Positions 21,357 to 40,956 are shown, numbered from the stretch's first letter. The stretch is 64,000 nt of DNA from a phage (GCA_012813795.1 GCA_012813795.1_4087.1), one strand, 5' to 3'. Notes: a model not told the origin generated them from the sequence alone. Numbers and translations: made by a program.

Positions 21357-21582
21357 AGTGTTCGCTCATTTCATTCATATATTCATAGCACGATAGGTAT
21401 ATAATTTTTTTAATCATAAAAGACATATCAGATTTGTCACTGTCCTCTGCAATACGAAAAATATAACGCATATTAGCAAAGATATAAAGAGGTATATCCG
21501 ATTCTTCAGTACCAGAAAATATATCTATAATAAACCCATAACTAAAATCCGATGCTGGTGCTTGTTCAAAAGTATTGTCCAT
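21346..21582 (-). CDS. hypothetical protein
   Basis: 78-aa minus ORF. Confidence 0.5.
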   Translation of the reverse strand: MDNTFEQAPASDFSYGFIIDIFSGTEESDIPLYIFANMRYIFRIAEDSDKSDMSFMIKKIIYLSCYEYMNEMSEHYDL

Positions 21583-21772
21583 TTTTCATCCTTATAATAC
21601 CCAAAAGATACTTAATATACGTCTCAACTGAAGCCTCCTGGTATTGTGTCCCTATGTACATCAGTAACTGTAATTCCGACACGTCATTTTGATTGGATGA
21701 CCTGATTGCAGTGAACATTTGAGCACTGTATTGGTTAAGAATATCTTGCATGTCTCTGTGTCTTATACCCAC
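21566..21772 (-). CDS. FamB paralog
   Basis: 68 aa; motif LLMYIGTQYQEASV. Confidence 0.6.
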   Translation of the reverse strand: MGIRHRDMQDILNQYSAQMFTAIRSSNQNDVSELQLLMYIGTQYQEASVETYIKYLLGIIRMKNGQYF

Positions 21773-21990
21773 GTGGACTCCCCCTTTCCTTGAACTTTAT
21801 TCTGAATTAATTTCTGAAGGTTAAAAATGTAATCTTTCATCACAACCTCTTGATAATTAGTTCCAAGAAAATGATTCAACTTGTAATCATGATATGGACG
21901 CCTCTTCTTCAAAAGGGGATGAAATGTATTCCATTTTGTGTAAATGTCAGAACACATTCTGTAGTACTGGTGTTTTGGAATATACTTCAT
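21763..21990 (-). CDS. FamB paralog
   Basis: 75 aa; motif HFLGTNYQEVVM. Confidence 0.6.
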   Translation of the reverse strand: MKYIPKHQYYRMCSDIYTKWNTFHPLLKKRRPYHDYKLNHFLGTNYQEVVMKDYIFNLQKLIQNKVQGKGESTWV

Positions 21991-22556
21991 AGTATACCAT
22001 CAACGAATACATCTTCGAATTCAAATGTTGAAGTATCAATGTATAAATTACTTCTGAAGTTCATTTGCATCTCCATATATAGACGCAAGATCATGTACAT
22101 GTCATCTGTACATGACAATTGAAACATCTGCTCTTCAAATGTGTTGTAATTGTATTTTGGGATTTCAATAGTACTACTCTTTACTGTATCCCACCAGTTC
22201 TGAATACCAAAATATAATTCAGTACTTTTTCCTGTATAAAACAAATTCATGATTTGATTTTTTTCATTCAAGTACAAACGGTTCGTGCCGCATACGGCAA
22301 TACCAATACCAATAAGTGTAAGTGCAGGAAGACCGTCACGTAATACACGACAACGATGAAATGTACCACCCTTATAGACTGCCTGTAGGTAGTATCCTTC
22401 TTTAATAATGTCTCGTGATGGAATCAAACCAGTACTACAATCCTTAAGCAAAGGAACTATAATGTTGATTTTACGAGATAATTCCTGCATTTCCTCTGCA
22501 TTGTAAGCATCAATAATCATTTCATGTGCACCTTTTGAATTAATATTACTGTGCAT
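21987..22556 (-). CDS. FamA paralog
   Basis: 189 aa; motif EEQMFQLSCTDD. Confidence 0.65.
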   Translation of the reverse strand: MHSNINSKGAHEMIIDAYNAEEMQELSRKINIIVPLLKDCSTGLIPSRDIIKEGYYLQAVYKGGTFHRCRVLRDGLPALTLIGIGIAVCGTNRLYLNEKNQIMNLFYTGKSTELYFGIQNWWDTVKSSTIEIPKYNYNTFEEQMFQLSCTDDMYMILRLYMEMQMNFRSNLYIDTSTFEFEDVFVDGIL

Positions 22557-22592
22557 TGTAACACAGTACAGGCTCTTGTCAATAGCATGAAC

Positions 22593-23039
22593 TCATTTTT
22601 TAGAACTAATCTTACGTAAGTACTCAAAGTAATCTAAATCAATGTATACCTGATCGTGCTTCAAGTTCATAGTACTAATAAGATAAAACAAACGTAATAC
22701 ATGTAGTTCTTCATGATTCAGTACTGTACTCAATTGAAAGTATCCTTCGTCAGTACCTACACTTTGTATTGTCTCTCTGGTATACACTGTACGGTCATCA
22801 CTACTGTCACGTACCACAATCAACTCGTCTGCCAGTGCATTATAGGAGATGTAATTTGAATAAGAATTGAAAAATGATTGCTCATCAGAGCACCCACCAC
22901 AGAAAGTAAAATATACACACCCACCTTTCTCGTATTCAAGTTCACTACCCAATACTTTAGGATTATCATTGAAGTACTTGATTATTTGTACAATATCCTG
23001 AACCAACTTATCATTTACTTCATAATAATAAAAAAACAT
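22593..23039 (-). CDS. FamA paralog
   Basis: 148 aa; motif DEGYFQLSTVLN. Confidence 0.65.
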   Translation of the reverse strand: MFFYYYEVNDKLVQDIVQIIKYFNDNPKVLGSELEYEKGGCVYFTFCGGCSDEQSFFNSYSNYISYNALADELIVVRDSSDDRTVYTRETIQSVGTDEGYFQLSTVLNHEELHVLRLFYLISTMNLKHDQVYIDLDYFEYLRKISSKK

Positions 23040-23044
23040 TACAA

Positions 23045-23500
23045 TTACCTCTTATATTTCTGTGTCTCTATGTATTCATAATCCATATAGAAACATGTTG
23101 AATCTATACTTTTAAAGTACCACATAATGACCAGAGTATCGAGTTCATGTTCAGTATATACAGTACTTTGCTGAAAGTAATACTCTTCACTATCCCACGG
23201 ACCATCCAGTACTGAAAACGGAATTGTCAAATCTTTAGCATAATAATCAGGGTTGTATACGGTTATATCTGACCCTGGGTAGTAATTGATAAAGTAGTAC
23301 AAAGGGTTATAACCACAATTATCATGATCATAATCATCACATTGCAGTACTAATGTATCAGAACCATCAAAATCCTCAATATTCTTCGTGCAATATTCAG
23401 TCTCTGACATTTTGAAGATACCTGGAATTTCTCCACCTTTGACCTTAATCATGTACTCATGAATCTTCTTTGCTTCTTTCAATGCACTTTGTAACGACAT
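23045..23500 (-). CDS. FamA paralog, MSL-subfamily
   Basis: 151 aa; N-terminus MSLQSALKEAKKIHEYM; motif EEYYFQQSTVYT. Confidence 0.65.
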   Translation of the reverse strand: MSLQSALKEAKKIHEYMIKVKGGEIPGIFKMSETEYCTKNIEDFDGSDTLVLQCDDYDHDNCGYNPLYYFINYYPGSDITVYNPDYYAKDLTIPFSVLDGPWDSEEYYFQQSTVYTEHELDTLVIMWYFKSIDSTCFYMDYEYIETQKYKR

Positions 23501-23943
23501 TACAAATCCCCTGTACTTAAATATTCACATGCTCCCCAGTCAAGAAAGAATGGTTCAAAATTCAATTCCTTAAAGTACCACAACACAACCAAGGAATCAA
23601 GCATTTCTTGGTTAAAAATGAGACTCTGTTGGAAGTAATACTCTTCAGTACCCCACGGGCCATCAAGTACCCCGAAGTCAACAGGTGAATTTGATGTGTC
23701 AAAAGTAATCTTAGTACCTGGAATATATACCATAAAACTAGTATATTGACTACATGAAGAGTACTGTATAGTATTGTCTTTATCATGACCCATAAGTAAA
23801 ATATCAGCAGAGTATGTCTTTATACCTGATAGATAATACTCATTACCAAAAGCACTTACTTTATCACCATAGAACCCACTTTTTATGTTATCGTGGAAGT
23901 GATGTATTTTGTGTGCCAGTTCAAGTGCACTTACTAAACTCAT
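23500..23943 (-). CDS. FamA paralog, MSL-subfamily
   Basis: 147 aa; MSLVSALELAHKIHHF; motif EEYYFQQSLIFN. Confidence 0.65.
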   Translation of the reverse strand: MSLVSALELAHKIHHFHDNIKSGFYGDKVSAFGNEYYLSGIKTYSADILLMGHDKDNTIQYSSCSQYTSFMVYIPGTKITFDTSNSPVDFGVLDGPWGTEEYYFQQSLIFNQEMLDSLVVLWYFKELNFEPFFLDWGACEYLSTGDL

Positions 23944-24410
23944 ATATCCTCTTTTATAACTCGTAATAGATCCAAGTCCATATAGAAGTTAGGACAATCA
24001 GTGTTGTTAAAGTACCACAGAATGACAAGCTTGTCAAGCACATCTTCCTCGTAGATAGTATTCTGCTGGAAGTAGAACTCTTCACTTCCCCAGTCATTAT
24101 CCAGTACTGAATACGGAAGATATACCTCTGGTGCACCTGTTTGAATAAATGAATCTTGGATTAAAATATCAGCATCACGACAGAAGTACATGTAATTATC
24201 TTCCAAATTAACATCACATCCAATGAGTGTTGTTTCAGAATCATCTAAGTTTTCTTCATACATATGAATATATTCACTACTGTCATCGTATATCATTCGA
24301 CAATATGATTTACCTTCCTTGAATAGATATCCATTGAGACAATTTGATACAATTTCTTTGCTGCATAAATCAATTAACTTCGCAATCTCTAATGCTCTTT
24401 CTAAACTCAT
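23940..24410 (-). CDS. FamA paralog, MSL-subfamily
   Basis: 156 aa; MSLERALEIAK; motif EEFYFQQNTIYE. Confidence 0.65.
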   Translation of the reverse strand: MSLERALEIAKLIDLCSKEIVSNCLNGYLFKEGKSYCRMIYDDSSEYIHMYEENLDDSETTLIGCDVNLEDNYMYFCRDADILIQDSFIQTGAPEVYLPYSVLDNDWGSEEFYFQQNTIYEEDVLDKLVILWYFNNTDCPNFYMDLDLLRVIKEDI

Positions 24411-24411
24411 T

Positions 24412-24894
24412 TCAACCCCTGTGAAGTTTATTAATACCGTTATCTACAGTTTTCTTTACGTATCTGTAATCGAAATAGAAGTTCGCAGAACCAATACTTT
24501 TAAAGTACCACATAATTACAATACAATCAAGTTCTTCTTCATTGTATACAGTACTTTGTTGGAAGTAATACTCTTCACTATCCCACGGACCTTCCAGTAC
24601 TGCACACGGAATTATAATGTCATCGGTATCGTGGACAGTACTGTAGATGGTAATATCTCCATCATTAACATAGACCATGTACTCATTATGCATATCAATG
24701 AAACATTCATAATCATTAGGGTCGGTATCTAGTACGCACGTTTCTGTATCTGGGAAGTCATTATCAATGAGGTTATCAGAGACATAATATTGAGTACTTG
24801 TGTCTTTGGAAATACCGTAAACTGAACCTTCTTTTGCCATATTCATGTACTCATGAATCTTCTTTGCTTCTTGTAATGCTCTTTCTAAACTCAT
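24412..24894 (-). CDS. FamA paralog, MSL-subfamily
   Basis: 160 aa; MSLERALQEAKKIHEYM; motif EEYYFQQSTVYN; C-terminal ...LHRG encoded by a repeated junction sequence. Confidence 0.65.
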   Translation of the reverse strand: MSLERALQEAKKIHEYMNMAKEGSVYGISKDTSTQYYVSDNLIDNDFPDTETCVLDTDPNDYECFIDMHNEYMVYVNDGDITIYSTVHDTDDIIIPCAVLEGPWDSEEYYFQQSTVYNEEELDCIVIMWYFKSIGSANFYFDYRYVKKTVDNGINKLHRG

Positions 24895-24895
24895 T

Positions 24896-25078
24896 TCAAC
24901 CCCTGTGAAGTGTCTTAATATATTCTCGGTACGCCCAGAGAATATTAGCTATATACAATTCACTACTATCTCGTGCACCGAAGCTGTCATTTGTAATACA
25001 GTTTTTATGACTAATGTCTTTAACAAAACGACGAATAACTGCGTTTATAAATGATTCCATTTGTTCTTTTTTAAGCAT
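24896..25078 (-). CDS. hypothetical protein, possible duplication remnant
   Basis: 60 aa; shares only the C-terminal LHRG-stop junction with 24412..24894. Confidence 0.4.
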   Translation of the reverse strand: MLKKEQMESFINAVIRRFVKDISHKNCITNDSFGARDSSELYIANILWAYREYIKTLHRG

Positions 25079-25404
25079 CAGTACTCCAGATTAATAGAAT
25101 AAATGCAAGAACGAACTATTTGGTCCTTGTTATCTCTGTAGTACTTTTGTAATGCAAGGTACATAAAGAAATCGATTTCTTTATCCCATACTAATGATTC
25201 CTGAAATATAAAACTTTCATAGTTCTCCATGTATTCGCATTCGATGTAATTAGGAAGCTTATCTGTTTTGGATATGTACTCAATATTACATTCATTGAAA
25301 TCACGAATAATCAATATAGGTGTTTTATTCAATGTAGTAAAAAAGCACGTATAAGTAAAACCACTTCCCATTGTACTTGAAGAAACATATATTTTAGTAT
25401 TCAT
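25078..25404 (-). CDS. FamA paralog (short)
   Basis: 108 aa; motif ESFIFQESLVWD. Confidence 0.6.
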   Translation of the reverse strand: MNTKIYVSSSTMGSGFTYTCFFTTLNKTPILIIRDFNECNIEYISKTDKLPNYIECEYMENYESFIFQESLVWDKEIDFFMYLALQKYYRDNKDQIVRSCIYSINLEY

Positions 25405-25748
25405 TAGAATCTACTCTTAATAAGTTTATTACAGTGCTCATTGTATTCTTCCTCGGAAATAACTTGAGTACTGCTATTGTTGAAATGATTTCTGTAATGA
25501 CCAGTATTCAAACAGAATGATGCGTTGTTACGAGTTATAATGTATTTCACAATTTCTCCGCACCAGACTTCTCCAGTGAAAGTCTTTATTTTAATTTTAG
25601 TACCATTATGTTTTTTCTGTAGTACTACTTTTATTTCTTCGAACATTTCATTAAAGAAAGAAAGACTTGTCCATCCGTGCATTAAATCTTCAATTTCATA
25701 TAATGTATTCTGGAGAAGATCTATTTCACGGTATTCATTGTATGTCAT
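25404..25748 (-). CDS. hypothetical protein
   Basis: 114-aa minus ORF; no FamA motif. Confidence 0.55.
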   Translation of the reverse strand: MTYNEYREIDLLQNTLYEIEDLMHGWTSLSFFNEMFEEIKVVLQKKHNGTKIKIKTFTGEVWCGEIVKYIITRNNASFCLNTGHYRNHFNNSSTQVISEEEYNEHCNKLIKSRF

Positions 25749-25759
25749 AGTTAAGACCC

Positions 25760-26116
25760 CTATAGATTGAAATAGTACTGAACCGTCTTGTGCTTATCTA
25801 GAGTTAATTCCATCATGCACTTCGCAGAGTATTCTTTCATGATATTCTGAATACCAATAACTTCATCTAGTGTACAAATATATTTCTTATCGAACACTAA
25901 TGATTCCTGAAATAGAGTAGCCTCATCCATTTCTGTATAGTCCAGCATAGGTTCATTAACACCACCACCAACTCGACCGTAATCAACAAAAGAAAATCCA
26001 TCTAATGTGTACTTAATATATCGGTCCAACGAATGATTGGTATCCCCCTTAACGAGATTACAATAGAACTCAACCTTTTTGTAGAAAAAACTGTGAATAG
26101 CAAAATCATTGCTCAT
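25760..26116 (-). CDS. FamA paralog (short)
   Basis: 118 aa; motif EATLFQESLVFD. Confidence 0.6.
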   Translation of the reverse strand: MSNDFAIHSFFYKKVEFYCNLVKGDTNHSLDRYIKYTLDGFSFVDYGRVGGGVNEPMLDYTEMDEATLFQESLVFDKKYICTLDEVIGIQNIMKEYSAKCMMELTLDKHKTVQYYFNL

Positions 26117-26316
26117 AATAACCTCTACTATAATTAATAAGGTAAACTACAATATAAGGAGCACGTTCGGCGGCGGGGTATTTTTTGTTTAAGGAAACAT
26201 GAACTGTACTCTGAAAAACACAATATAAAATTTTATATTAAACATATACCTTAACATGTTTTTCAGCGAAAATTTTTTTGACCCCCAAAAACAAGCCTAT
26301 ATTTATCATTTTAAAA

Positions 26317-26883
26317 TTACCCCTTTTCCGCGTCCTTATCAAACACGTACTGTATGTACTGAAGCATTGCAACGAGATCAATATCACGGTCAAATCTCAA
26401 CGTTAACTTCTCCGTTAACTCCCCGAAGGTATCATAATAATGCTTAACAAAATAACGATATCGTATTGAATTATAATCGTGCAATGTACTGTACTGAAAC
26501 ACTACATCAGGACTATATGGCATCAAATCTATAAGCTCACTTACTTTTAATTTCTCATTTTCGCCATTATTTTTAACTGTTATATATTCATTTGAACTGA
26601 ACCATGCACATGATACATCTGAACAAATTGATGTTGTACTGTAAAATCTATCTGTACTCACAAATAATACACTATGTGATTTGTTGGATTTTCTTTCGTA
26701 AATCGATAAATCCGACATAAGCGTAATGATTGGTTCGTGACGAAATTTATCATGCTGGTACGTTTCCTGAAACGCATTCGGATTTTTGTAAATCCTATCT
26801 ACAATTAAATACAACCCCTTGATGTATTCTAAATCATCTTCTATCGCTTTGCATGTACTTTCTATGTCCTGAAGGTCCAGCAT
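26317..26883 (-). CDS. FamA paralog
   Basis: 188 aa; motif PDVVFQYSTLHD. Confidence 0.65.
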   Translation of the reverse strand: MLDLQDIESTCKAIEDDLEYIKGLYLIVDRIYKNPNAFQETYQHDKFRHEPIITLMSDLSIYERKSNKSHSVLFVSTDRFYSTTSICSDVSCAWFSSNEYITVKNNGENEKLKVSELIDLMPYSPDVVFQYSTLHDYNSIRYRYFVKHYYDTFGELTEKLTLRFDRDIDLVAMLQYIQYVFDKDAEKG

Positions 26884-27419
26884 TACTCCCCCTTAATCTC
26901 TTTGAGATCTTTTACTAACCTATCGTACCACGTTAAAGCTAAAAAGAAATTCGTTTTCACATTAGCACGTAATACATTATATACTTGCTGCACCTGTAAA
27001 ACATAAGGATCTTGTACTAAGGACTCCTGAAAATATTCTTCAGGACTCAGGATGTTAGGATTCAAGGTTGCAATATCAACGTGCTTTGTTAAACCAAAAA
27101 AGGTTTCTTCCTCTCTCTTGCTCATATCCAAATAACGAATCCAATTCACTGGAGCGAACTCTTCAGATGCTGATGTAGCCGATGTAATAGCATTGAACAA
27201 AAGACAATACTCTAACTGCATCTTCTCACCTACAGCGTGCATTACCGTATCTCTCCTGTAATACACAATAGAGGGATACTTTTCAATATCGCTCTTAGGC
27301 TCAAGCCATCCTTCCTTGTGCTTAGGATAGATGTGGTCAAAATCCCCAGCCTCAAACGCCTGTACGATTTTTACTAAATTGTCAGCGAACTCGTACTCAA
27401 AATGTTTGTGCTGGATCAT
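26883..27419 (-). CDS. FamA paralog
   Basis: 178 aa; motif PEEYFQESLVQD. Confidence 0.65.
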   Translation of the reverse strand: MIQHKHFEYEFADNLVKIVQAFEAGDFDHIYPKHKEGWLEPKSDIEKYPSIVYYRRDTVMHAVGEKMQLEYCLLFNAITSATSASEEFAPVNWIRYLDMSKREEETFFGLTKHVDIATLNPNILSPEEYFQESLVQDPYVLQVQQVYNVLRANVKTNFFLALTWYDRLVKDLKEIKGE

Positions 27420-27471
27420 CTAAATCACTCCCGTCTTTGTTGTATTGTGTGTTATTGCATGTTATTGCGTA

Positions 27472-28110
27472 TTATAACACAATCTCTTTTAACTTCAAAA
27501 TGAAATCTTCATATACTTTTATCTGAAAATGCGGACTCTGTGCACTGAAACTAAACCCATGTTCAATCAATTTCTTGTACTCATTCGCATATTTGCACAA
27601 CTTCAGGATTTCGGTAGGGTCCACCATATCCTTCTGTACTAAGGACATTTGAAAAAGCACTTCCTCTACACCCTCGTACTCTTGCCCTGCAATGTAACAT
27701 ATGTCATCTTCTAACGATAATGATATGAACGTCTTTGTACTTATTGCATTACCATCTTTTGAAACACCATAATCTGCAACTGAATCCACAAAGGAATCCG
27801 GCTTAGATGAACCTGCTATGTCGCAAATGTACTTGTCAATGTATGTGATGTTATTGTTGTTATCGAATATACCAAATGCTAATGACGTGTCAAATACTTC
27901 CCTGAAACCAATTCTGTCACTACCGATAACTAAAACTAATTTACCACAGGATGCACTGTATCTGGATGCGGAATCAAATGGAATCTCCAATTTTGAATTC
28001 TCAGGGAAAATAGCATTGAACTTCTTTAGCATTTCAAACATATAAGGAACATGAGGCTCCATGAACTTCATCACCTCATACGGTGAAGCATTTCTGGGAA
28101 AATTATTCAT
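27472..28110 (-). CDS. FamA paralog
   Basis: 212 aa; motif EEVLFQMSLVQK. Confidence 0.65.
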   Translation of the reverse strand: MNNFPRNASPYEVMKFMEPHVPYMFEMLKKFNAIFPENSKLEIPFDSASRYSASCGKLVLVIGSDRIGFREVFDTSLAFGIFDNNNNITYIDKYICDIAGSSKPDSFVDSVADYGVSKDGNAISTKTFISLSLEDDICYIAGQEYEGVEEVLFQMSLVQKDMVDPTEILKLCKYANEYKKLIEHGFSFSAQSPHFQIKVYEDFILKLKEIVL

Positions 28111-28627
28111 AGGTTTTTACCCTTAAATTTTCGAAATCCCATACATCGCTGATTGTACCCTCGTGTCTGTAATCATAATATTGTACTAAAACATTATACA
28201 ATAACTTCAACGATACAAATTCATGATTCCACGGAGCTTTATTCTCATGAACACATTTAGAGATATAAGGTATCATATATAAAGCAACCATCTCTAATGG
28301 TTCATGTACACATTGCTTTTGAAAATATTCTTCTTCTTGCATACAATGCTCAGGAATAATTAGATCATCATGTTTACCGAAGACATATGAACCTACTGTG
28401 TATTTTTTCACATCGCAAGCGAACCATATTGTACTATCCGAAACAAATGGAATGATACCATTATTGTTTGCAATGTACATCATATGGTAAGAGCTATTTG
28501 GCTTGTTAAATACCTCTATACTTTTAATATTACTACAAATCGCGTATTCAATACAATCAATAATCTTATCTTTAAATGCACCAATTTCATTGAATGTCAT
28601 TGCTTTCTGTATTGTTGAACTGCTCAT
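28103..28627 (-). CDS. FamA-like
   Basis: 174 aa; motif EEEYFQKQCVHE. Confidence 0.6.
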   Translation of the reverse strand: MSSSTIQKAMTFNEIGAFKDKIIDCIEYAICSNIKSIEVFNKPNSSYHMMYIANNNGIIPFVSDSTIWFACDVKKYTVGSYVFGKHDDLIIPEHCMQEEEYFQKQCVHEPLEMVALYMIPYISKCVHENKAPWNHEFVSLKLLYNVLVQYYDYRHEGTISDVWDFENLRVKTYE

Positions 28628-29148: not shown

Positions 29149-29228
29149 AAATGTCTCCTTTAAAATGAATACACATGATAACAGCTTTGGTCTTCTATGT
29201 CAATACCAAAACAAAAAAAGCCCATATC

Positions 29229-31417: not shown

Positions 31418-31423
31418 ATATTA

Positions 31424-31789: not shown

Positions 31790-31983
31790 TAATGTTTGTA
31801 CTTGTGTAAAATTCTATCCTGTACTGAAAGATGCTCAAATACAATTAAACTCAAATAATAATTGTAATCATTGATACCACCCCTCAAATGCATATTGTAA
31901 TACAGCTTAATACTATCTAATAATGAATCCTGTAATGCATGTAATGCATTTAATGTCTTTGCATCTATCATCATCTTTCCCAT
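31786..31983 (-). CDS. hypothetical small protein
   Basis: 65-aa minus ORF. Confidence 0.5.
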   Translation of the reverse strand: MGKMMIDAKTLNALHALQDSLLDSIKLYYNMHLRGGINDYNYYLSLIVFEHLSVQDRILHKYKHY

Positions 31984-32372
31984 TTAATAGGGTATTCCGT
32001 TTCATTTACTACATACGACATAATCCATCCGTAATGGATAGGATGATATTTGTCTGAATCAGGAATAAAATATAAAGCTGTACTGGGATTATAACTGAAG
32101 AAATCCCTCTCGTCAAATGTTAATCTGGCTAACTTAATTTTCCTTGGAATTGCATGAGGACGAACTGTATTCTTTACACAGAATATACCATCCTTGTATT
32201 TTGGTACTATAACATCCAATGCACTCTGGATTAACTCCTGAAAGACTAAATTGATTTGTGCAAATGAATCCTTCTTGTTATGCATTTCGTGCCATAAATC
32301 TCGTCTTGCATTTAACATCATTATTACTGGTCTAAGATCCTGTACTACTGTTAGATTCTGCATTGTATTCAT
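31971..32372 (-). CDS. hypothetical protein
   Basis: 133-aa minus ORF. Confidence 0.55.
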   Translation of the reverse strand: MNTMQNLTVVQDLRPVIMMLNARRDLWHEMHNKKDSFAQINLVFQELIQSALDVIVPKYKDGIFCVKNTVRPHAIPRKIKLARLTFDERDFFSYNPSTALYFIPDSDKYHPIHYGWIMSYVVNETEYPIKWER

Positions 32373-32589
32373 TTATCTCATTCTGTAACTTAACAACCAA
32401 AATTTGCGTATGAATTTTTCGTTCAAGGTGCTTGATAAATTTCTGTACCATTTCTTCTTGTACTGATGTACCAAGATAAAATAACATATTAAATTCCGAT
32501 AATCGCAAAGCAAAATCTTCATCGCCCCCTTGTAAACAAAAATCCCTGTACTTTGATGCGTACAAATGATGGTTTACATTTTTGTACAT
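32332..32589 (-). CDS. FamB paralog
   Basis: 85 aa; motif MLFYLGTSVQEEMV. Confidence 0.6.
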   Translation of the reverse strand: MYKNVNHHLYASKYRDFCLQGGDEDFALRLSEFNMLFYLGTSVQEEMVQKFIKHLERKIHTQILVVKLQNEINEYNAESNSSTGS

Positions 32590-32792
32590 TTAGACTCCTT
32601 TGGTGTGCATACTATCTCTGTTCGTAAAGCCCTTATGTATGCATCAACAAATTGTGGCTGTGCTCTCGTTCCTAGATAAAATAATAAATCGAACTCTGCC
32701 ATTTTAACATTAAAAGGATCTGAATCTACATTTCGAATAAAATGTCTGTACTTCAATTCATATCCGTTAGGCATCTTCTTGTATACTATCAT
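32574..32792 (-). CDS. FamB paralog
   Basis: 72 aa; motif LLFYLGTRAQPQFV. Confidence 0.6.
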   Translation of the reverse strand: MIVYKKMPNGYELKYRHFIRNVDSDPFNVKMAEFDLLFYLGTRAQPQFVDAYIRALRTEIVCTPKESKCTKM

Positions 32793-33102
32793 ATTCTATA
32801 CAATCACCTCTTTTAATCGAATCCCAAACTTCCTTCATCTTCTTCTGTAATGCAATCATAATATCTATATCAAACATATAAGGGTCATGAATTAGACTGT
32901 ACTGAAATAATTCATCTTCCTGCATAAGAGAAAGATCCTGAAGCAACTCGTACTTACCTAAACTCCTGGGACTCAAATAAGCAAAATATTCTTTACCGTC
33001 CTCAAAAACATAATGTACTTCATGATTCATGTACTTCTTGTAATTCTCATGCGTATAAGCAAATATACAACCGGAATTAATTCTATGAATGTTGAATTTC
33101 AT
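32767..33102 (-). CDS. FamA paralog (short)
   Basis: 111 aa; motif EDELFQYSLIHD. Confidence 0.65.
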   Translation of the reverse strand: MKFNIHRINSGCIFAYTHENYKKYMNHEVHYVFEDGKEYFAYLSPRSLGKYELLQDLSLMQEDELFQYSLIHDPYMFDIDIMIALQKKMKEVWDSIKRGDCIEYDSIQEDA

Positions 33103-33109
33103 ATATCCC

Positions 33110-33445
33110 CTATATTACAATTCTATGCACATCTTGAATGAAATGCTTTGGAAGATTACTATACGATATCATCTGCCTTTGTACTTCCTTCATTTCATTG
33201 AACGTAAATCCAAAAGAATCATCGTGTACTAAACTGTACTGAAACTCTTCTTCTTCAGAGATATCAACTAGATTCGGTACTGCAATCTTGTTTCCTGTGG
33301 ATTTTACACCGTCTACCCAATAGAAACAATTATCAACTTTATTGTACTCAAATACCTTAACCCCAGAACCGCTCTGGAAATTGGACAACGCAATGAAACA
33401 GATTTTATCTCTGACAATACAATTGAATTTACGTGTCATCTCCAT
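33110..33445 (-). CDS. FamA paralog (short)
   Basis: 111 aa; motif EEEFQYSLVHD. Confidence 0.65.
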   Translation of the reverse strand: MEMTRKFNCIVRDKICFIALSNFQSGSGVKVFEYNKVDNCFYWVDGVKSTGNKIAVPNLVDISEEEEFQYSLVHDDSFGFTFNEMKEVQRQMISYSNLPKHFIQDVHRIVI

Positions 33446-33681
33446 CTCTCTCCGTCATCGCAAGAGTACTGGTACGTTGTCGTTAGGGTAGGAACCATGT
33501 TTGTAATCGGCATGTTATTCACAATAACCGTTACGGGCATCATAACCGTCTCTTTTCTACTCTGTCCTGTCTTTGTGCAATTCATCTTGTGCATTTCATC
33601 TGAATCCAGATACGCTAATACAAACGGTGCAATCCCAAGAACAATACACAAGACGATAAGGAAATTTAAAAATTTTAACAT
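33436..33681 (-). CDS. small membrane-anchored protein
   Basis: 81 aa; N-terminal hydrophobic segment FLNFLIVLCIVLGIAPFVLAYL. Confidence 0.55.
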   Translation of the reverse strand: MLKFLNFLIVLCIVLGIAPFVLAYLDSDEMHKMNCTKTGQSRKETVMMPVTVIVNNMPITNMVPTLTTTYQYSCDDGERWR

Positions 33682-33719
33682 AATCTGTACCCTATGATTA
33701 ACGTTAGTGTACTATAGCA

Positions 33720-33950
33720 CTACATTAGAGTACTGTCAACTGCTTTGTTCTCTATTATGCTCATTAAACCCCAAATTAGATAACGAACACTATCAGCTTG
33801 ATAGTTAGTACCTACTGTGCATTTTAAAATTAACTCATCTTTCAGTACTGCACGTTCTTCTTGGGGTATAGGAAGAGAATTTATTTGTTGTATTTGTGGT
33901 TGTAAAGTATTAATAAGCTTACAGTACTCTTCGAATGATAATCTTTTCAT
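33720..33950 (-). CDS. FamB paralog
   Basis: 76 aa; motif CTVGTNYQADSV. Confidence 0.6.
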   Translation of the reverse strand: MKRLSFEEYCKLINTLQPQIQQINSLPIPQEERAVLKDELILKCTVGTNYQADSVRYLIWGLMSIIENKAVDSTLM

Positions 33951-33962
33951 GGTTCAGTACTC

Positions 33963-34304
33963 TTAATACTCAATAATGTGTTCTTCATAAGCATCACGAG
34001 GCTCCTGTTTAGTTTCTTTCATTAGTACTATCATTTTATGTACTAAGGGCATAGGAAACTCTAAATCCCATACTAATGATTCCTGAAAGTATTCCTCTTC
34101 TGATAAAGTACTTAAATCTTCAATGTCAATGTGTTCGTACATATTATTTTCGTAATTAGCAAAAGATATATATAAACCTCCTGTGGAACTGTAAGTAACT
34201 GTGAATGGCGTACCCTTGTAGTCCATTACATCTTTACATAGACTACTTTTGATGTATATATTTTCATACGATATGTATACCTTGAGTTGAATATTAGTTT
34301 TCAT
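33963..34304 (-). CDS. FamA paralog (short)
   Basis: 113 aa; motif EEEYFQESLVWD. Confidence 0.65.
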   Translation of the reverse strand: MKTNIQLKVYISYENIYIKSSLCKDVMDYKGTPFTVTYSSTGGLYISFANYENNMYEHIDIEDLSTLSEEEYFQESLVWDLEFPMPLVHKMIVLMKETKQEPRDAYEEHIIEY

Positions 34305-34306
34305 TT

Positions 34307-34528
34307 TTAAACACCTATTCCATTAGCAATAGCATCACGTAAAGCTGTCAAATACTTCTGTACTGCTTGCTCTTGATGATTTGTATCTAAAAGTATATAC
34401 ATCCATAATTCACTGTAATGTACATCTTGTGTATAAGGGTCATTGTAACTTTTTGATAATATAGCATCAAATTCAGATGCATGAACCCTTGTGAACTTAA
34501 GAATATCTTTTTGTGTTATGATTCTCAT
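34307..34528 (-). CDS. FamB paralog
   Basis: 73 aa; motif ILLDTNHQEQAV. Confidence 0.6.
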   Translation of the reverse strand: MRIITQKDILKFTRVHASEFDAILSKSYNDPYTQDVHYSELWMYILLDTNHQEQAVQKYLTALRDAIANGIGV

Positions 34529-34740
34529 ATCTTTTCCTGTACTATCTTTATAAGAATCTCAATATATGAATTAACAGTTATTTCTTGATGCTGTGTTCCT
34601 AAGAGTAGCAGTACTATCATCTCTGAACGCAAAAGATTTTTTTCAAGTTCCCCTATATCAGTTCTTGTATCAAGTACAATAAATTCTTTCTTATTTTTTC
34701 TGAATAGTGCCAAGTACTCTTGGTTTGATATTTCCTTCAT
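34525..34740 (-). CDS. FamB paralog
   Basis: 71 aa; motif LLLGTQHQEITV. Confidence 0.6.
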   Translation of the reverse strand: MKEISNQEYLALFRKNKKEFIVLDTRTDIGELEKNLLRSEMIVLLLLGTQHQEITVNSYIEILIKIVQEKI

Positions 34741-34967
34741 AGTTTATCCCTGATGCCATTTAAAAGTGCTCTAATATGCTCCTGTACGAATTGGTACTGA
34801 CTGTCTGTTCCTAGAGTGAGTAACAATCTTAAATCTGAACTTTTGATATGATATTCTAAATCATTATTTGATTCTTGCATCAGTTTCTTAAAGGATGAGA
34901 AGTTTGCTGCCATTAGTTCAATGTATTCTGCTGTTCCTAGGGGTTTGTGTATGTGCTGTCTGTGCAT
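34737..34967 (-). CDS. FamB paralog
   Basis: 76 aa; motif LTLGTDSQYQFV. Confidence 0.6.
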   Translation of the reverse strand: MHRQHIHKPLGTAEYIELMAANFSSFKKLMQESNNDLEYHIKSSDLRLLLTLGTDSQYQFVQEHIRALLNGIRDKL

Positions 34968-35179
34968 TTTAATTGTATTACCCTTTTGAGTGTATTAATG
35001 TAATTATAAACATTGGCTTCTTGATAGTTAGTTCCTAGAGTAGCTTGAACGTAGATTTCATTTAACTTAATAATTTTATCCGTATCTGGTAGTTTTGATG
35101 TGTTAATGGCAAATAACTTCAAAAACAGTCCATTTATGATTGTTCGGTATTCTTCTCCGGTAATGATTCGCATTTGCAT
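34937..35179 (-). CDS. FamB paralog
   Basis: 80 aa; motif ATLGTNYQEANV; start may be Met3. Confidence 0.6.
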   Translation of the reverse strand: MQMRIITGEEYRTIINGLFLKLFAINTSKLPDTDKIIKLNEIYVQATLGTNYQEANVYNYINTLKRVIQLKCTDSTYTNP

Positions 35180-35379
35180 TGGATAGACCTTTGGAGTGTA
35201 TTAAGATAATCCACGATGATGTGTTCTTGATAGTTAGTTCCTATAGTAGCTAGAACATAGATTTCACTTATTAGAATATTTTTTTCATCCTGTGATAATT
35301 CTTCTGACCAGCTACGATGCAACTTTGGAATTAAACTACTTAATAGTTGGTTGTATTCAGTAGGTGAAATGATTTTCAT
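35134..35379 (-). CDS. FamB paralog
   Basis: 81 aa; motif ATIGTNYQEHII. Confidence 0.6.
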   Translation of the reverse strand: MKIISPTEYNQLLSSLIPKLHRSWSEELSQDEKNILISEIYVLATIGTNYQEHIIVDYLNTLQRSIQCKCESLPEKNTEQS

Positions 35380-35591
35380 TTACATCTTCTCAGTACTGAT
35401 TCTTTAAGTTCATCGATGTAGTCCTCAACAAATTGTTCTTGTAGGTTTGTTCCGAGATGTAACAGTACTCTTAAATCTGCTCTCAGTACTTCTTTGTCAT
35501 CTTCATCTATATCAGACAGTGATATGTTTAAGAATTTACTTGAATTCTCTATAAGTAATATTACTTCATCACCTTCGCTTAAAATTTTCAT
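35376..35591 (-). CDS. FamB paralog
   Basis: 71 aa; motif LHLGTNLQEQFV. Confidence 0.6.
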   Translation of the reverse strand: MKILSEGDEVILLIENSSKFLNISLSDIDEDDKEVLRADLRVLLHLGTNLQEQFVEDYIDELKESVLRRCK

Positions 35592-35797
35592 AATCTTTGT
35601 GTTTTCCTCGACAGTAGATACAGGTAACGTTCAGTGCATTGTTCTTGATAGTTTGTTCCTAATAAATGAACTAATTGTTGTTCAGCTATAGAAAGCTGTT
35701 TATCTTCATAACAAGCGTATCGTTGTTTCCTATGGTATTCTTTATTGATAACATCAAGGATGATAACACCGTATTCGTCATCGGTCAAGTGTTTCAT
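35588..35797 (-). CDS. FamB paralog
   Basis: 69 aa; motif HLLGTNYQEQCT. Confidence 0.6.
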   Translation of the reverse strand: MKHLTDDEYGVIILDVINKEYHRKQRYACYEDKQLSIAEQQLVHLLGTNYQEQCTERYLYLLSRKTQRL

Positions 35798-36035
35798 GTG
35801 CTTTTCTTTTTCTTATATGTTTAGTTAAAAGGTATATTAGTTTTCTTACGTACTCGTCTTGATAGTTAGTCCCTAATAGTGCAAGAAGTTTTGCTTCAAC
35901 TAAAGCTAATTGTCGTTCTTCAAATGTGTGTTCCAGAATGTACTTGGGGTTTGATTTTTTAGAAATTGCACTATTAGTCTTCATTATAATCTTATGATAT
36001 TCATTGACCGTCAAGATTTTTATATTCTTGATCAT
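35778..36035 (-). CDS. FamB paralog
   Basis: Track ORF 35778..36146 trimmed to internal Met (MIKNIKILTVNEY) to remove overlap with the next paralog; motif ALLGTNYQDEYV. Confidence 0.5.
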   Translation of the reverse strand: MIKNIKILTVNEYHKIIMKTNSAISKKSNPKYILEHTFEERQLALVEAKLLALLGTNYQDEYVRKLIYLLTKHIRKRKAHETLDR

Positions 36036-36255
36036 ATATCTTTTCCTTAATAGTAATTTTAAGATATCTAAGAATCGATCGAACATAATAATCCTGTCTA
36101 TCGGTTCCAAGAAAGTACAGGAGTTGTTGATATAATACTTCTGCACTCCTTGCAGCAGGGGTTTGGTTTGGGTCTTTTGGAAGTTGATTTGTATGTTTTC
36201 TGGATTTAATTATTCTTTCTTTTATTTCATCGTCTGTTAAGTATATCATTTGCAT
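36001..36255 (-). CDS. FamB paralog
   Basis: Track ORF 36001..36291 trimmed to internal Met (MQMIYLTDDEI); motif YFLGTDRQDYYV. Confidence 0.5.
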   Translation of the reverse strand: MQMIYLTDDEIKERIIKSRKHTNQLPKDPNQTPAARSAEVLYQQLLYFLGTDRQDYYVRSILRYLKITIKEKIYDQEYKNLDGQ

Positions 36256-36482
36256 TTTATGTTCCTCACATGAATTGTTTGGATTAAACATTCAATCCAA
36301 GATGTAACATATCTTGTTTGATATTGTGTGCCTAAGAGACTCTGCATTTTAAACTCTGCTTCAAGTTCATATCTCTTTTCTATCGTAAAGCTTAAATGAC
36401 CATATTCTGCATCGTATCTTCTCAGTGATTCCCCAATTCTAGTAAATCTTTCTGCTAAGTTGATGTTATTCACAGTATTCAT
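36246..36482 (-). CDS. FamB paralog
   Basis: 78 aa; motif SLLGTQYQTRYV. Confidence 0.6.
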   Translation of the reverse strand: MNTVNNINLAERFTRIGESLRRYDAEYGHLSFTIEKRYELEAEFKMQSLLGTQYQTRYVTSWIECLIQTIHVRNIKCK

Positions 36483-36742
36483 CGATCAGTACACCTCAGT
36501 GGTTGGGTCATTTGATAAAAGTACAGCTTACCTCTGATTTCCATTAACAACTCGGCGATGACGCGATTTACTTCTGTCTCTTGATAGTTTGTTCCTAAGA
36601 AGACACCCATCTTTAACTCACGATGCATAATCATCTTCTTACTGTGTTGAATTTCTTGGCTGTAATAGATTGCATTACGTTTAGGTGAGATTTTTGCTAG
36701 TCGCTCGTTATATTCATCTTGACTTAAATTGATCATTTGCAT
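36479..36742 (-). CDS. FamB paralog
   Basis: 87 aa; motif VFLGTNYQETEV. Confidence 0.6.
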   Translation of the reverse strand: MQMINLSQDEYNERLAKISPKRNAIYYSQEIQHSKKMIMHRELKMGVFLGTNYQETEVNRVIAELLMEIRGKLYFYQMTQPLRCTDR

Positions 36743-36957
36743 TTACTTTGGACCTCATTTTGAAGTGCATTAATGACCTTCAGTACAGCACTCGCTTGAT
36801 AGTTTGTTCCTAAGACTGAAAGCATCTTGATCTCATTTACTACAATCCACTTATTTGATTGTTCAATAATGTAACTTTCATAAATGGCCTTGCGTAATGA
36901 ATAAGTTTTTGCAAGACGTACATAATATTCATCTTTACTTAAATTAATCATTTGCAT
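36733..36957 (-). CDS. FamB paralog
   Basis: 74 aa; motif SVLGTNYQASAV. Confidence 0.6.
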   Translation of the reverse strand: MQMINLSKDEYYVRLAKTYSLRKAIYESYIIEQSNKWIVVNEIKMLSVLGTNYQASAVLKVINALQNEVQSKCK

Positions 36958-37166
36958 TTACTTTTAACCTCTTTCTGGAGTGCATCAATCCATAGGTCTA
37001 TATACGTTTGTTGATAGTTTGTGCCTAAGAGTGCCTCTACATAGAGTTCAGCTACCTTTGCGTGCTTTAGGTCAACAGGGATGCTCTTATCGCTTGATAA
37101 CATTCTCCTTCTGCTGGTGCATGTTTTCAGAAGCCTGATGTATTCAACACCTTGTAATTTTCTCAT
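36948..37166 (-). CDS. FamB paralog
   Basis: 72 aa; motif ALLGTNYQQTYI. Confidence 0.6.
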   Translation of the reverse strand: MRKLQGVEYIRLLKTCTSRRRMLSSDKSIPVDLKHAKVAELYVEALLGTNYQQTYIDLWIDALQKEVKSKCK

Positions 37167-37378
37167 TCTCTGGATATCACCTTGTTACGTAGACTTGCTA
37201 ACCATGCGTCAGTATAGATGTTTTGATAGTTTGTCCCAATGAAGATAGATAGCTTCATTTCAGTTATTATAACACATTTGTCCACTTGTGCAATAGATTT
37301 GTTTAAAGAAATACTAGAAACTTTTGCTTGTATAGTTCGCAACAGCCTGTAATATTCATACCCACTAAGGATTTTCAT
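37163..37378 (-). CDS. FamB paralog
   Basis: 71 aa; motif IFIGTNYQNIYT. Confidence 0.6.
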   Translation of the reverse strand: MKILSGYEYYRLLRTIQAKVSSISLNKSIAQVDKCVIITEMKLSIFIGTNYQNIYTDAWLASLRNKVISRE

Positions 37379-37625
37379 TCTCTCGTCTCCAGACTTCCGT
37401 TCTTATATGTTGTTGATATGCTTCCAGATAGTTCTCTATTGCCTTAGCGATTGTTTGTGTATCGTCTCCCGTCATCAGTACAAGCATCTCTGCTTCACAG
37501 TGAATAAGTCTGCTGATATCATTAGTGAGTTTATCAGATACTGTATCATAGTGTTTGTGGATTAGTTTCTGAAATAGTTTAACGTACATGATGTGATTTA
37601 TTCTGGATCGCATTGTCTTTTCCAT
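37365..37625 (-). CDS. FamB-like (divergent)
   Basis: 86 aa; degenerate motif LVLMTGDDTQTIA. Confidence 0.5.
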   Translation of the reverse strand: MEKTMRSRINHIMYVKLFQKLIHKHYDTVSDKLTNDISRLIHCEAEMLVLMTGDDTQTIAKAIENYLEAYQQHIRTEVWRRENENP

Positions 37626-37849
37626 TCTCTTTTGGTCTGGCGGGTTTTATATGCTACAAGGTTTCTTAGTGCATTGATATAACGATCAGTGAAGATATCT
37701 TGTTTATTAGTTCCAACGAATTTAAGAAGAAACACGTCACCATTAACTACATCATTCTCAGGGGAAGGATAAAGTTCATTGTTCTTGCGAAGGGTGTTTA
37801 GTAAAGAGAATAGGGCAGATTGATACTCAGTGCTTGATAATACTTTCAT
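37598..37849 (-). CDS. FamB paralog
   Basis: 83 aa; motif KFVGTNKQDIFT. Confidence 0.6.
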   Translation of the reverse strand: MKVLSSTEYQSALFSLLNTLRKNNELYPSPENDVVNGDVFLLKFVGTNKQDIFTDRYINALRNLVAYKTRQTKREWKRQCDPE

Positions 37850-38073
37850 TAGTTCATTCCCTTTCTTTCTATATGTTTCATAAGAACATTAAGATACTCA
37901 CCCACAAACCTATTCTGATACTGCGTCCCCATGAATTCAAACAGCCATACTTCAGCAACCATTTCTTCAATTTCATTCCAAGATAAGTACATCATAGTGA
38001 AGTAAATGTGGTTCTCTTTTTGAGATGCACACCTTGAGCGAGCCTCGTATTCAAAGTTATTAATGCAGTTCAT
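37849..38073 (-). CDS. FamB paralog
   Basis: 74 aa; motif EFMGTQYQNRFV. Confidence 0.6.
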   Translation of the reverse strand: MNCINNFEYEARSRCASQKENHIYFTMMYLSWNEIEEMVAEVWLFEFMGTQYQNRFVGEYLNVLMKHIERKGMN

Positions 38074-38282
38074 AGTTTACTCCTGATGTATTTCTCAAGA
38101 GCTATTAGATACTCTTGGACATAAGATTTCTGGTGGTCAGTTCCTAAGAAGACACCCATAAGTAATTCTTTTTCCATAACTTTTGATAAGTGTACATCAT
38201 CACGGTCTGCATATATCAGCAAGATTTCAATCTGCTTAGAATTGTAACGTTTCCTATATTGCTCTGGTGTTAATATAATCAT
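38070..38282 (-). CDS. FamB paralog
   Basis: 70 aa; motif VFLGTDHQKSYV. Confidence 0.6.
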   Translation of the reverse strand: MIILTPEQYRKRYNSKQIEILLIYADRDDVHLSKVMEKELLMGVFLGTDHQKSYVQEYLIALEKYIRSKL

Positions 38283-38497
38283 AGTTTACTCTTTATATCT
38301 TCAATTAAAAATCCAATCCAATCATTGACATACTCTTCCTGAAAGTTTGTGTCCAGTACAGCCATCATGCGATATTCTGCTCTTTTGGCGTCGATTACAG
38401 TTTTAGGGAGGTCACCATGTATATCTATCATGTCATCAAGGTATTTCAATATACGACCAAATGCTTGTGTCTGTGTTATGATTTTCAATGTTTGCAC
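38279..38497 (-). CDS. FamB paralog
   Basis: 72 aa; motif AVLDTNFQEEYV. Confidence 0.6.
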   Translation of the reverse strand: MQTLKIITQTQAFGRILKYLDDMIDIHGDLPKTVIDAKRAEYRMMAVLDTNFQEEYVNDWIGFLIEDIKSKL

Positions 38498-38685
38498 CTC
38501 GCTCGTATGTCAGCTTTCAAAGATTCCAAATAGTGAGTTATCCACACTTCCTGATAGTTGGTTCCCATCGCAATCAACAGGTACAACTCAACTCTTTCTA
38601 AGTGCACATTGCTTTGGTAAATCCTTGCCGTGTTTTTACGTAGTATATGATGATATTCATCTTGGGTTAATGTACGCATTTTCAT
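38485..38685 (-). CDS. FamB paralog
   Basis: 66 aa; motif IAMGTNYQEVWI. Confidence 0.6.
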   Translation of the reverse strand: MKMRTLTQDEYHHILRKNTARIYQSNVHLERVELYLLIAMGTNYQEVWITHYLESLKADIRARCKH

Positions 38686-38879
38686 AGTTTACCATTTATC
38701 TCTAAACATAACTCTTTTACATATAGTTTAACATATTCATTTTGTAAGTTAGTTCCTAAGAATAGTTCCATAACTAATTCACGTTTATAGGCATTACCAC
38801 GTTTATGAGACTTATACATTATCATAGCCATGTTATTGATAAGTCTTTCGTGATGCTCTTCTTGGGTTAAAATACGCAT
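38682..38879 (-). CDS. FamB paralog (first of array)
   Basis: 65 aa; motif LFLGTNLQNEYV. Confidence 0.6.
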   Translation of the reverse strand: MRILTQEEHHERLINNMAMIMYKSHKRGNAYKRELVMELFLGTNLQNEYVKLYVKELCLEINGKL

Positions 38880-38913
38880 AGGGTAAATTCCATAGGTTCA
38901 TATATGAAAAAAC

Positions 38914-40369: not shown

Positions 40370-40376
40370 GTACTTT

Positions 40377-40950: not shown

Positions 40951-40956
40951 TTTTTG

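Follow-up and report, generated by a model that had tools for sequence, protein, structure and literature searches.

A tandem family of small, predicted four-helix paralogues in Asteriusvirus jumbo phages

The host-takeover module of SPO1, the pre-early region of T5 and the Tre genes of Kayvirus are early or host-takeover modules associated with terminal repeats. The MGF110, MGF360 and MGF505 genes of ASFV and the Bcl-2-like proteins of poxviruses are terminal paralogous families whose copy number varies between strains, and in which a small helical scaffold with diversified surfaces binds different host immune proteins. Bacillus phage G encodes about 35 zinc-ribbon proteins, a lineage-specific expansion proposed to act as regulators or DNA-binding proteins (Iyer et al. 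2021, PMC7824862). The tandem gene arrays of phage 121Q were mentioned in one sentence, without coordinates, by Hua et al. (2017, mBio, PMC5646251).

Here we analysed a window of 64 kb, the whole stretch of DNA under study, from an Asteriusvirus, a PBECO4/121Q-like giant phage of E. coli. A preliminary description of this sequence had reported a family of about 25 small proteins sharing a C-terminal motif and an N-terminal pattern, which we call FamB. All 26 ORFs were found in place and on the minus strand, 21 of them consecutive (34307-38879) and five outlying, and they encode diverged proteins of about 70 residues. Genes 319-341 of 121Q are the orthologous array, with 22 copies in its main part. 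Together with FamA (100-215 aa, motif EE-Y-F-Q-x-S-T-V) and FamC, FamB accounts for about 45% of the window (44.8%), all of it without assigned function. The preliminary view that lineage-specific expansion makes up roughly half of the window thus stood as to its extent, but the expansion is genus-wide and older rather than a property of this phage alone.

Membership and predicted fold of the family

An HMM trained on the 21 consecutive ORFs alone was run against the 360 ORFs of the window. This independent profile matched the five outlying members, at 33720..33950 (76 aa, E 6e-15, with one FamA gene between it and the array), 21763..21990 (75 aa, E 1.2e-10, within the FamA region), 21566..21772 (68 aa, GTG start, E 1.7e-10), 32574..32792 (72 aa, E 1e-8) and 32332..32589 (85 aa, E 1.2e-8). 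The next-best ORF had an E-value of 0.37, and the top match in 20 shuffled windows one of 0.019. In a leave-one-out search, 25 of the 26 members were regained at E <= 3e-8, and the profile spanned every member ORF from end to end.

The array opens with member 1 (38682..38879, 65 aa), which was matched by the HMM (leave-one-out E 3e-10) and has orthologues in four phages. Both the HMM and the leave-one-out search identified members 2 (38485..38685, 66 aa, with an ATGA overlap with member 1), 3 (38279..38497, 72 aa, GTG start), 4 (38070..38282, 70 aa), 5 (37849..38073, 74 aa), 6 (37598..37849, 83 aa), 8 (37163..37378, 71 aa), 10 (36733..36957, 74 aa), 12 (36246..36482, 78 aa), 15 (35588..35797, 69 aa), 19 (34737..34967, 76 aa), 20 (34525..34740, 71 aa) and 21, the last gene (34307..34528, 73 aa). 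HMM matches likewise define members 9 (36948..37166, 72 aa), 11 (36479..36742, 87 aa), 16 (35376..35591, 71 aa, the most acidic, with a net charge of -8), 17 (35134..35379, 81 aa) and 18 (34937..35179, 80 aa), as well as 13 (36001..36255, 84 aa from the start MQMIYLT) and 14 (35778..36035, 85 aa from the start MIKNIKIL). For these last two the profile begins at residues 13 and 42 of the long ORFs, and the family-consistent starts are 36255 and 36035 instead of the longest-ORF starts 36291 and 36146. The deposited genomes of PBECO4, phAPEC6 and A4 omit a number of FamB genes from their annotation.

Member 7 (37365..37625, 86 aa) carries TGDDTQ in place of GTNYQ and reached a leave-one-out E-value of 0.015. 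Its orthologue group aligned colinearly with the other FamB proteins (hhalign probability 80%, E 1.5e-5, 68 columns) and its AF2 model (pLDDT 88) places three long helices as in FamB; we therefore count it as a probable diverged member. It is the one array member without GTNYQ. Otherwise, statistics over 141 members from five phages bore out the motifs: L47, G48 (88%), T49 (97%), N/D/Q50, Y/H/F51, Q52 (96%), E53, V/I56, Y/W59, I/L60 and L63 (95%) in the C-terminal half, and M-K-I-L-T-x-x-E-Y at the N-terminus.

Structure prediction gave a confident domain of four helices for member 11 (AlphaFold pLDDT 95.2). In the model the N-terminus belongs to the folded core (pLDDT 96-98), residue 4 bridging to residue 51. 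A common architecture is strongly supported, in which a hydrophobic core is shared by all copies and the L-G-T-N-Y-Q-E loop would cap the last helix and bridge to the N-terminal strand. The core and the loop are conserved in the alignment whereas columns 15-35 vary, and the hypervariable parts are helix 2, the loop between helices 2 and 3 and the C-terminal tail. At pH 7 the 26 members carry net charges between -8.4 and +7.9, and mean amino-acid identity between copies is 23%. FamB corresponds to PHROG entry phrog_4148, matched by 25 of the 26 members (best E 3.4e-26, profile positions 1-72 of 74), and ten members also match phrog_28039. The family was thus already catalogued as an uncharacterised PHROG, nothing beyond the clustering being known before. 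No relatives were found in Pfam, NCBIfam or the PDB, and no structural neighbours of the fold outside FamB.

An all-helical protein of about 70 aa with a pI above 8 (14 of 26 members) could be a small nucleic-acid-binding regulator, HTH-like or nucleoid-associated, each paralogue having its own site and retuning host or phage transcription. To our reading, L-G-T-x-x-Q...V..Y-I superficially resembles helix-turn-helix signatures, the N-terminal 18 residues resemble Hha, and the best Foldseek match in the PDB is a predicted transcriptional regulator, but with an E-value of 1.8. Against this, none of the 26 members matched a helix-turn-helix or other DNA-binding Pfam profile, and the surface is not consistently basic, with charges down to -8. 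We regard such a role as distinctly improbable. Assignment to the helix-turn-helix class was rejected, as neither a profile match or superposition nor a consistently basic surface was found. A relationship to the H-NS modulators Hha/YmoA was also discarded: hhalign against E. coli Hha gave a probability of 3%, with only those 18 residues aligned, and PF05321 was not matched.

Relatives, age and selection

A syntenic main array of 20-28 copies was present in every Asteriusvirus examined, with 18 members in the 10-kb stretch examined of JNE01. Outside the genus, three copies occupy the corresponding position in Klebsiella phage K64-1, and a metagenomic phage of 29% GC (L009) has six. An exhaustive search of 1.84 billion protein representatives returned only 96 FamB clusters. 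On the strength of the models, FamB is a family of small soluble four-helix proteins of Asteriusvirus jumbo phages and a few relatives.

Orthologues are syntenic and 47-100% identical, compared to 29-53% for the best paralogue. The closest paralogues, members 10 and 11, share 53% of their amino acids and form the best DNA repeat pair, with 71% identity over 198 nt. Against three phages, median dN/dS was 0.37-0.42, close to that of FamA (0.35) and above the 0.17 of the neighbouring terminal-repeat genes. It stayed below 1 for nearly all members and approached 1 in only two; member 21 had about 1.1-1.4. A mean of about 0.4 shows relaxed purifying selection and not the positive selection expected of an arms race. 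From syntenic orthologues that are closer to each other than paralogues are, and from a dN/dS of about 0.4, we conclude that the expansion is old and that every copy has been retained. Mis-called frames or a motif arising from low-complexity composition, which had been named as what could undo the family, did not hold: the profile covers full ORFs, the orthologous genes of other phages have the same ORF borders, and dN/dS lies at about 0.4. FamB is a genuine, old paralogous multigene family. A recent "accordion" amplification was rejected in view of the same low paralogue identities at the DNA and protein levels.

The array has nevertheless changed. Member 9 is only 60% identical to its counterpart in phage A4, amid a background of otherwise about 98% identity, and members 17 and 18 are fused in one gene in A4. 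The fusion reflects an unequal crossover between two units, and the member 9 cassette a replaced allele. The variable copy number of the main array, together with relaxed constraint, would also suit an array that is for the most part expendable filler, generated by tandem duplication in a jumbo-phage genome-expansion ratchet and made of copies of little individual function. Hua et al. (PMC5646251) read the tandem arrays of 121Q and phage G as duplication-driven genome expansion. However, every copy keeps an intact ORF, coupled overlapping junctions and the family core, orthologues are syntenic genus-wide, dN/dS is below 1 in nearly all members, and the DNA repeats decayed long ago, which means that the copies have survived for a long time. 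We give this explanation only a slim chance.

Operon, promoter and terminal repeat

As the preliminary description had it, stop/start overlaps run throughout the main array: all 20 junctions overlap, by 1-46 nt, nine of them as ATGA, and Shine-Dalgarno-like sites accompany the junctions. The promoter placed at its head was also recovered, as a sigma-70-like sequence at 38942-38914 (TTGACA-17-TATGAT, 11 of 12 consensus positions), with a refinement. Promoter and terminator scans and RNA folding showed one hexamer in each arm of a 13-bp hairpin that precedes a T6 run (38911..38942, minus strand, -19.8 kcal/mol, z -4.3), a structure resembling a terminator. The promoter is kept in A4 and PBECO4, while 121Q, fEgEco12 and JNE01 have a different sigma-70-like promoter at the same place; such a promoter heads the array in six phages and in every lineage examined, as judged by consensus matches only. 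Taken together, these features strongly support the prediction that the 21 copies form one translationally coupled operon with its own sigma-70-type promoter.

The direct terminal repeat of fEgEco12 measures 20,993 bp, as confirmed by restriction digestion (PMC13070987), and position 21,091 is the start of its first FamB gene. The alignment with the window extends over both boundaries of this repeat, and by this homology the first FamB gene would lie about 100 bp from the inner edge of a terminal repeat of about 21 kb. The repeat-equivalent region contains 16 conserved early promoters (40.3-58.3 kb), whose flanks resemble those of the head-of-array promoter, strongly supporting a terminal repeat packed with strong predicted sigma-70-like early promoters. 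As a class, promoter-like matches showed no enrichment over the region scanned (38 observed, 47.8 expected). The repeat-equivalent region also holds a kinase-like gene. Both a location beside a long repeat and a host sigma-70-type promoter, the latter by consensus, were found here, as in terminal-repeat-associated early modules.

This location and promoter type suit early and not late genes, which bears on whether FamB proteins have a place inside the virion or in its assembly, as injected proteins or chaperones might. T4 internal proteins carry N-terminal capsid-targeting peptides, and the FamB N-terminus loosely resembles them, which is a lead only; in the model, however, it is part of the folded core. 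Moreover, the 62 proteins of the phAPEC6 virion identified by mass spectrometry do not include gp467c-gp489c, although small proteins can escape detection. A virion role appears very improbable.

Possible roles and comparison with described systems

Our tentative reading, plausible though somewhat short of probable, is that FamB proteins are diversified binding modules that act early, are not virion components and serve host takeover or counter-defence. Judging from position and promoters, the operon would be transcribed by the host RNA polymerase early in infection, and its products would stay in the cytoplasm without being packaged. The variable surface of each paralogue, carried by a common scaffold, may bind a different partner, most likely a host factor or defence protein, the array then constituting a diversified arsenal. 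On this reading copy number shifts by unequal crossing-over between neighbouring units, and single cassettes are exchanged between co-circulating phages. The searches brought up no resemblance to known proteins of anti-defence (Acr, Ocr/Ard, Tad, Acb, Gad and others) or host takeover. The strongly conserved polar residues of the loop (T, N, Q, E) might instead reflect a single ligand common to the paralogues and not a range of targets.

The constant interleaving with FamA may also reflect a joint function instead of independent effectors, FamB being an adaptor, inhibitor or immunity partner of the larger FamA proteins and both expanding as one system. The two families co-occur interleaved on the same strand in three separate lineages: the five outlying FamB genes of the window sit between FamA genes, the three of K64-1 lie directly upstream of the FamA-like gp486 and gp488, and the six of the metagenomic contig are found among 19 FamA genes. 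Yet the counts are unpaired (26 FamB to 43 FamA in the window, 6 to 19 in the contig), FamA genes are absent from the 21-gene main array, neither a profile-level relationship nor a fusion joins the families, and their co-location may reflect a common duplication-permissive region. We consider this partnership unlikely.

A bolder form of the host-takeover reading, possible but on the doubtful side, is that FamB represents a structurally new phage effector scaffold, with about 25 retained paralogues each neutralising its own host factor or immune system, perhaps together with FamA, and with the repeat flank as the phage counterpart of the ASFV and poxvirus terminal families. FamB offers a clean test set, with one small and confidently modelled domain, about 25 long-retained variants and apparently a single promoter. 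Should each variant recognise a host target of its own, the array would rank with the largest phage effector repertoires known on a single scaffold and could readily supply new inhibitors of E. coli proteins or defence systems; otherwise it would be a well-defined case of jumbo phage genome growth and duplicate retention.

Among described systems, phrog_4148 is the same protein family, in an entry without function, structure or genomic description. The 121Q arrays of Hua et al. (PMC5646251) belong to a congener, but the sentence may concern FamA rather than FamB, the copies are called "very similar" whereas mean FamB identity is only 23%, and the fold, expression and evolution of the array were not analysed. 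Like FamB, the zinc ribbons of phage G represent a small domain that a jumbo phage carries in tens of copies; they differ from its cysteine-poor four-helix domain and belong to another phage group and host. The SPO1, T5 and Kayvirus modules consist of unrelated small genes, whereas FamB is one family repeated some 25 times just outside the repeat, with an early timing that is inferred; they share with it many small genes on one strand and strong host-type promoters, in or beside a long direct terminal repeat. Although FamB has no sequence or structural relationship to the ASFV and poxvirus families, so that a role in host interaction is suggested by analogy only, it resembles them in its clustering near the genome end, its variable copy number and its helical scaffold with a diversified surface.

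The FamB family and its predicted fold

The ORF list contains a row of 21 consecutive ORFs (65-87 aa, all on the minus strand) at 34307-38879 and five outliers at 33720, 32574, 32332, 21763 and 21566, in agreement with the preliminary description, which had placed 21 consecutive genes and five further members of a small-protein family, FamB, at these coordinates. An HMM trained on the 21 tandem ORFs only was used to score 360 window ORFs. It retrieved the five outliers with E-values of 6e-15 to 1.2e-8, the next-best ORF reaching 0.37, so that the grouping of about 25 proteins into one family held. A leave-one-out HMM test recovered 25 of the 26 members at E <= 3e-8; the lowest E-value of the profile in shuffled windows (n=20) was 0.019. 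The exception, 37365-37625, carries TGDDTQ where the others have GTNYQ. Its orthologue group is colinear with the remaining FamB proteins (hhalign probability 80%, E 1.5e-5) and its model shows three long helices in a FamB-like arrangement (pLDDT 88); it was treated as a diverged member. For two members, the starts consistent with the family are 36035 and 36255.

Mean pairwise identity among FamB members is 23%. Column statistics on 141 members out of five phages revealed conservation at M2, L/I5, T/S6, E9, Y10, E/D40, L43, L47, G48, T49 (97%), N/D/Q50, Y/H/F51, Q52 (96%), E53, V/I56, Y/W59, I/L60, L63 (95%), I/V67 and K/R70; columns 15-35 are nearly information-free. Structure prediction by AlphaFold2, with the 26 paralogues as alignment, gave a four-helix model (residues 8-17, 19-27, 33-47 and 54-79; pLDDT 95.2, pTM 0.78) in which residue 4 bridges to T51 in the GTN loop. 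The proteins are hydrophilic, with net charges from -8.4 to +7.9, and showed no signal or membrane character. A likeness of the N-terminus to Hha/YmoA was discarded (hhalign probability 3%).

FamB corresponds to phrog_4148, of unknown function. Foldseek found no match in BFVD besides Asteriusvirus paralogues, a sequence-profile search of the PDB returned nothing under E 1, and scanning each of the 26 proteins against Pfam, NCBIfam and PADLOC gave just scattered sub-threshold matches to unrelated families. That FamB proteins are DNA-binding regulators is a less likely explanation.

Operon, promoters and terminal repeat

The stop/start overlaps described throughout the array are present at 20/20 junctions of the main array, by 1-46 nt, with an ATGA overlap at nine of them and a GAGG or AGGAG-like site within the upstream gene at most. 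The sole intergenic gap lies 5' of the first gene and contains the proposed promoter, TTGACA-17-TATGAT (11/12 match). The array is a single coupled operon with a sigma-70-like promoter, adjoining the terminal repeat. The two hexamers are placed in opposite arms of a 13-bp hairpin (-19.8 kcal/mol, z -4.3) followed by T6; because of this arrangement, the element could both end upstream transcripts and start new ones, acting as terminator and promoter, as far as can be judged from sequence. This hairpin-promoter is also found in A4 and PBECO4, and a different sigma-70-like promoter (TTGACT...TATTAT) occupies the same spot in 121Q, fEgEco12 and JNE01. The flanks of the window's own element (tacTTGACAt ... 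TATGATgtttttTcat) are similar to 16 near-identical sigma-70-like promoters, aaaaagtaCTTGCAt-N17-TATAATgttttacat, behind each of which stands a conserved leader, g(a/g)gagggg(g)aaa. These promoters are located solely at 40347-58307 (-), on the strand of the array and in the terminal-repeat-equivalent region, with roughly one for every one or two small genes, and they account for the repeated 'MFYIERGKRFPL' and 'GNGSPPNKEREIKM' pseudo-translations. Separately, FamB and FamA genes flank an ORF of 81 aa whose N-terminal segment is hydrophobic (33436-33681 (-), phrog_8826); upstream of it, an 11/12 sigma-70-like match (33739-33711) falls within FamB gene 33720-33950, at its 3' end.

The direct terminal repeats of fEgEco12 are 20,993 bp long, as confirmed by restriction digestion (PMC13070987), and those of Sharanji 20,668 bp (PhageTerm); the equivalent of this ~21-kb repeat is window ~38.9-60.0 kb. 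The first FamB gene of fEgEco12, g057, begins at position 21,091, which puts it some 100 bp inside the inner boundary of the repeat. The window alignment spans both fEgEco12 boundaries, the outer start at about 60,010, where GC skew changes sign (60 kb), and the inner end at about 38.9-39.6 kb. Since the window is continuous through both, the assembly is of collapsed-repeat or circularly permuted type. Exactly at the repeat/array junction lies a 140-aa ORF (38950-39372 (-)), variable between phages and with no PHROG or Pfam match. fEgEco12 lacks it (222 bp, vs 700 bp in the window), PBECO4 has 366 bp, and A4 a longer version of 819 bp.

Two other ORFs of the repeat-equivalent region were noted. 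A 165-aa ORF (53743-54240 (-)) has a weak Pfam match to Tox-PL-2 (papain-fold toxin 2; E 1.3e-3, below cut-off). A 194-aa kinase-like ORF (44029-44613 (-), phrog_4301) has sub-threshold protein-kinase matches (Pkinase E 2.6e-3), and its counterparts in fEgEco12 and K64-1 are annotated as 'protein kinase'. It would be an early kinase within the terminal repeat, recalling T7 gp0.7.

Copy number, age and turnover of the array

At the DNA level, the window shares 80-98% identity with Asteriusvirus jumbo coliphages, the closest being A4, then PBECO4, 121Q, fEgEco12 and others; every gene under these matches is annotated 'hypothetical protein'. Copy number was checked in the related phages: compared with 21 main-array genes and 5 outliers in the window, we counted 20 and 3 in A4 (10.7 kb fetched), 22 and 5 in 121Q, 28 and 5 in PBECO4, and 28 and 4 in fEgEco12, as well as 18 members within ~5 kb of JNE01 (10 kb fetched; array and outliers not separated). 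Many of these genes are absent from the deposited annotations of PBECO4 (L002), phAPEC6 (L006) and A4 (L001); of the 28 ORFs that the HMM detects in the PBECO4 array, about 18 are annotated, some of them in truncated form.

Orthologues are syntenic and 47-100% identical, the best paralogue being 29-53% identical. The DNA repeats of the array, with a unit spacing of 200-263 nt, have decayed to 60-71%, which rules out recent amplification and indicates that the expansion is older than the genus and that each copy was retained. Median dN/dS (vs three phages) is 0.37-0.42, close to the value for FamA (0.35) and above the 0.17 of the adjacent genes in the terminal repeat; that the array is neutral filler is among the less likely readings. 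Turnover proceeds via recombination. A4 is ~98% identical to the window outside differing units, and two adjacent FamB genes (34937-35379) correspond to a single chimeric gene in A4 (L001 2956-3198), a direct footprint of unequal crossing-over of neighbouring units. At 36948-37166, the cassette allele differs from that of A4 (60% amino-acid identity; PBECO4, 85%).

Relatives, neighbouring families and possible role

Consensus tblastn gave weak FamB matches in Klebsiella jumbo phages. In K64-1 (Alcyoneusvirus), three adjacent members, gp482-gp484 (E 1e-11, 4e-10 and 7e-13), are found 2.6 kb downstream of the kinase, and FamA-like genes follow them directly. When 1.84 billion cluster representatives were searched exhaustively with the HMM, only 96 FamB proteins emerged, 95 of them of 52-121 aa; the exception, P0203, is a 269-aa fusion with an N-terminal FamB domain, whose C-terminal 200 residues gave no informative match. 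Thirty-three of the 96 are <50% identical to any member of the loci analysed, and one of these resides on a metagenomic contig (GC 29%) with six FamB interleaved with 19 FamA genes. FamB is a real, constrained and old protein family of restricted phylogenetic range.

FamA (43 ORFs), FamB (26) and FamC (10) cover 44.8% of the window, close to the half first attributed to expanded families; hhalign probabilities of 0.02-0.15% or lower dismissed their union into one superfamily. The FamC ORFs (61-81 aa, in tandem at 60271-63753 (-); phrog_11711) carry the motif M-Y-K-E-Y-Y ... L-L-I-Y-x-Y, with two weak extra candidates at 63755-63955 and 63137-63349, and align to fEgEco12 g596-g613, which places them where the unique genome ends on the right, immediately before the terminal repeat. 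One member, 60271-60513 (-), contains a (Q-Y-N)x6 run; the DNA encoding it is a short, perfect tandem repeat that may be prone to slippage. The paralogous FamA ORFs (100-223 aa, 4084-34304 and 61869-62540 (-); 20.96 kb in total) match PHROGs of unknown function only (9317, 12674, 13866 and others). Their C-terminal motif, E-E-(Y/F)-F-Q-x-S-(T/L)-V, may superficially resemble 3C/TEV protease sites in its aromatic-Q-S part.

FamA genes are always interleaved with FamB, in K64-1 and the metagenomic phage as well, and this constancy in three lineages suggests the main rival explanation, that FamB works jointly with FamA. Tentatively, we would rather see in the array an early operon whose paralogues are diversified binding modules: host RNA polymerase would transcribe it at an early stage, and its products would act against host factors or defences. 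A role as virion components is less likely, none of the phAPEC6 array products (gp467c-gp489c) being among 62 virion proteins identified by mass spectrometry. Our literature search found neither transcriptomic nor functional studies of the early genes of Asteriusvirus, nor any paper analysing FamB. The tandem gene arrays of 121Q were remarked on by Hua et al. 2017 (PMC5646251), and a 2026 review restates this. The family is real and somewhat under-described, and the array is another example of a feature type already known.
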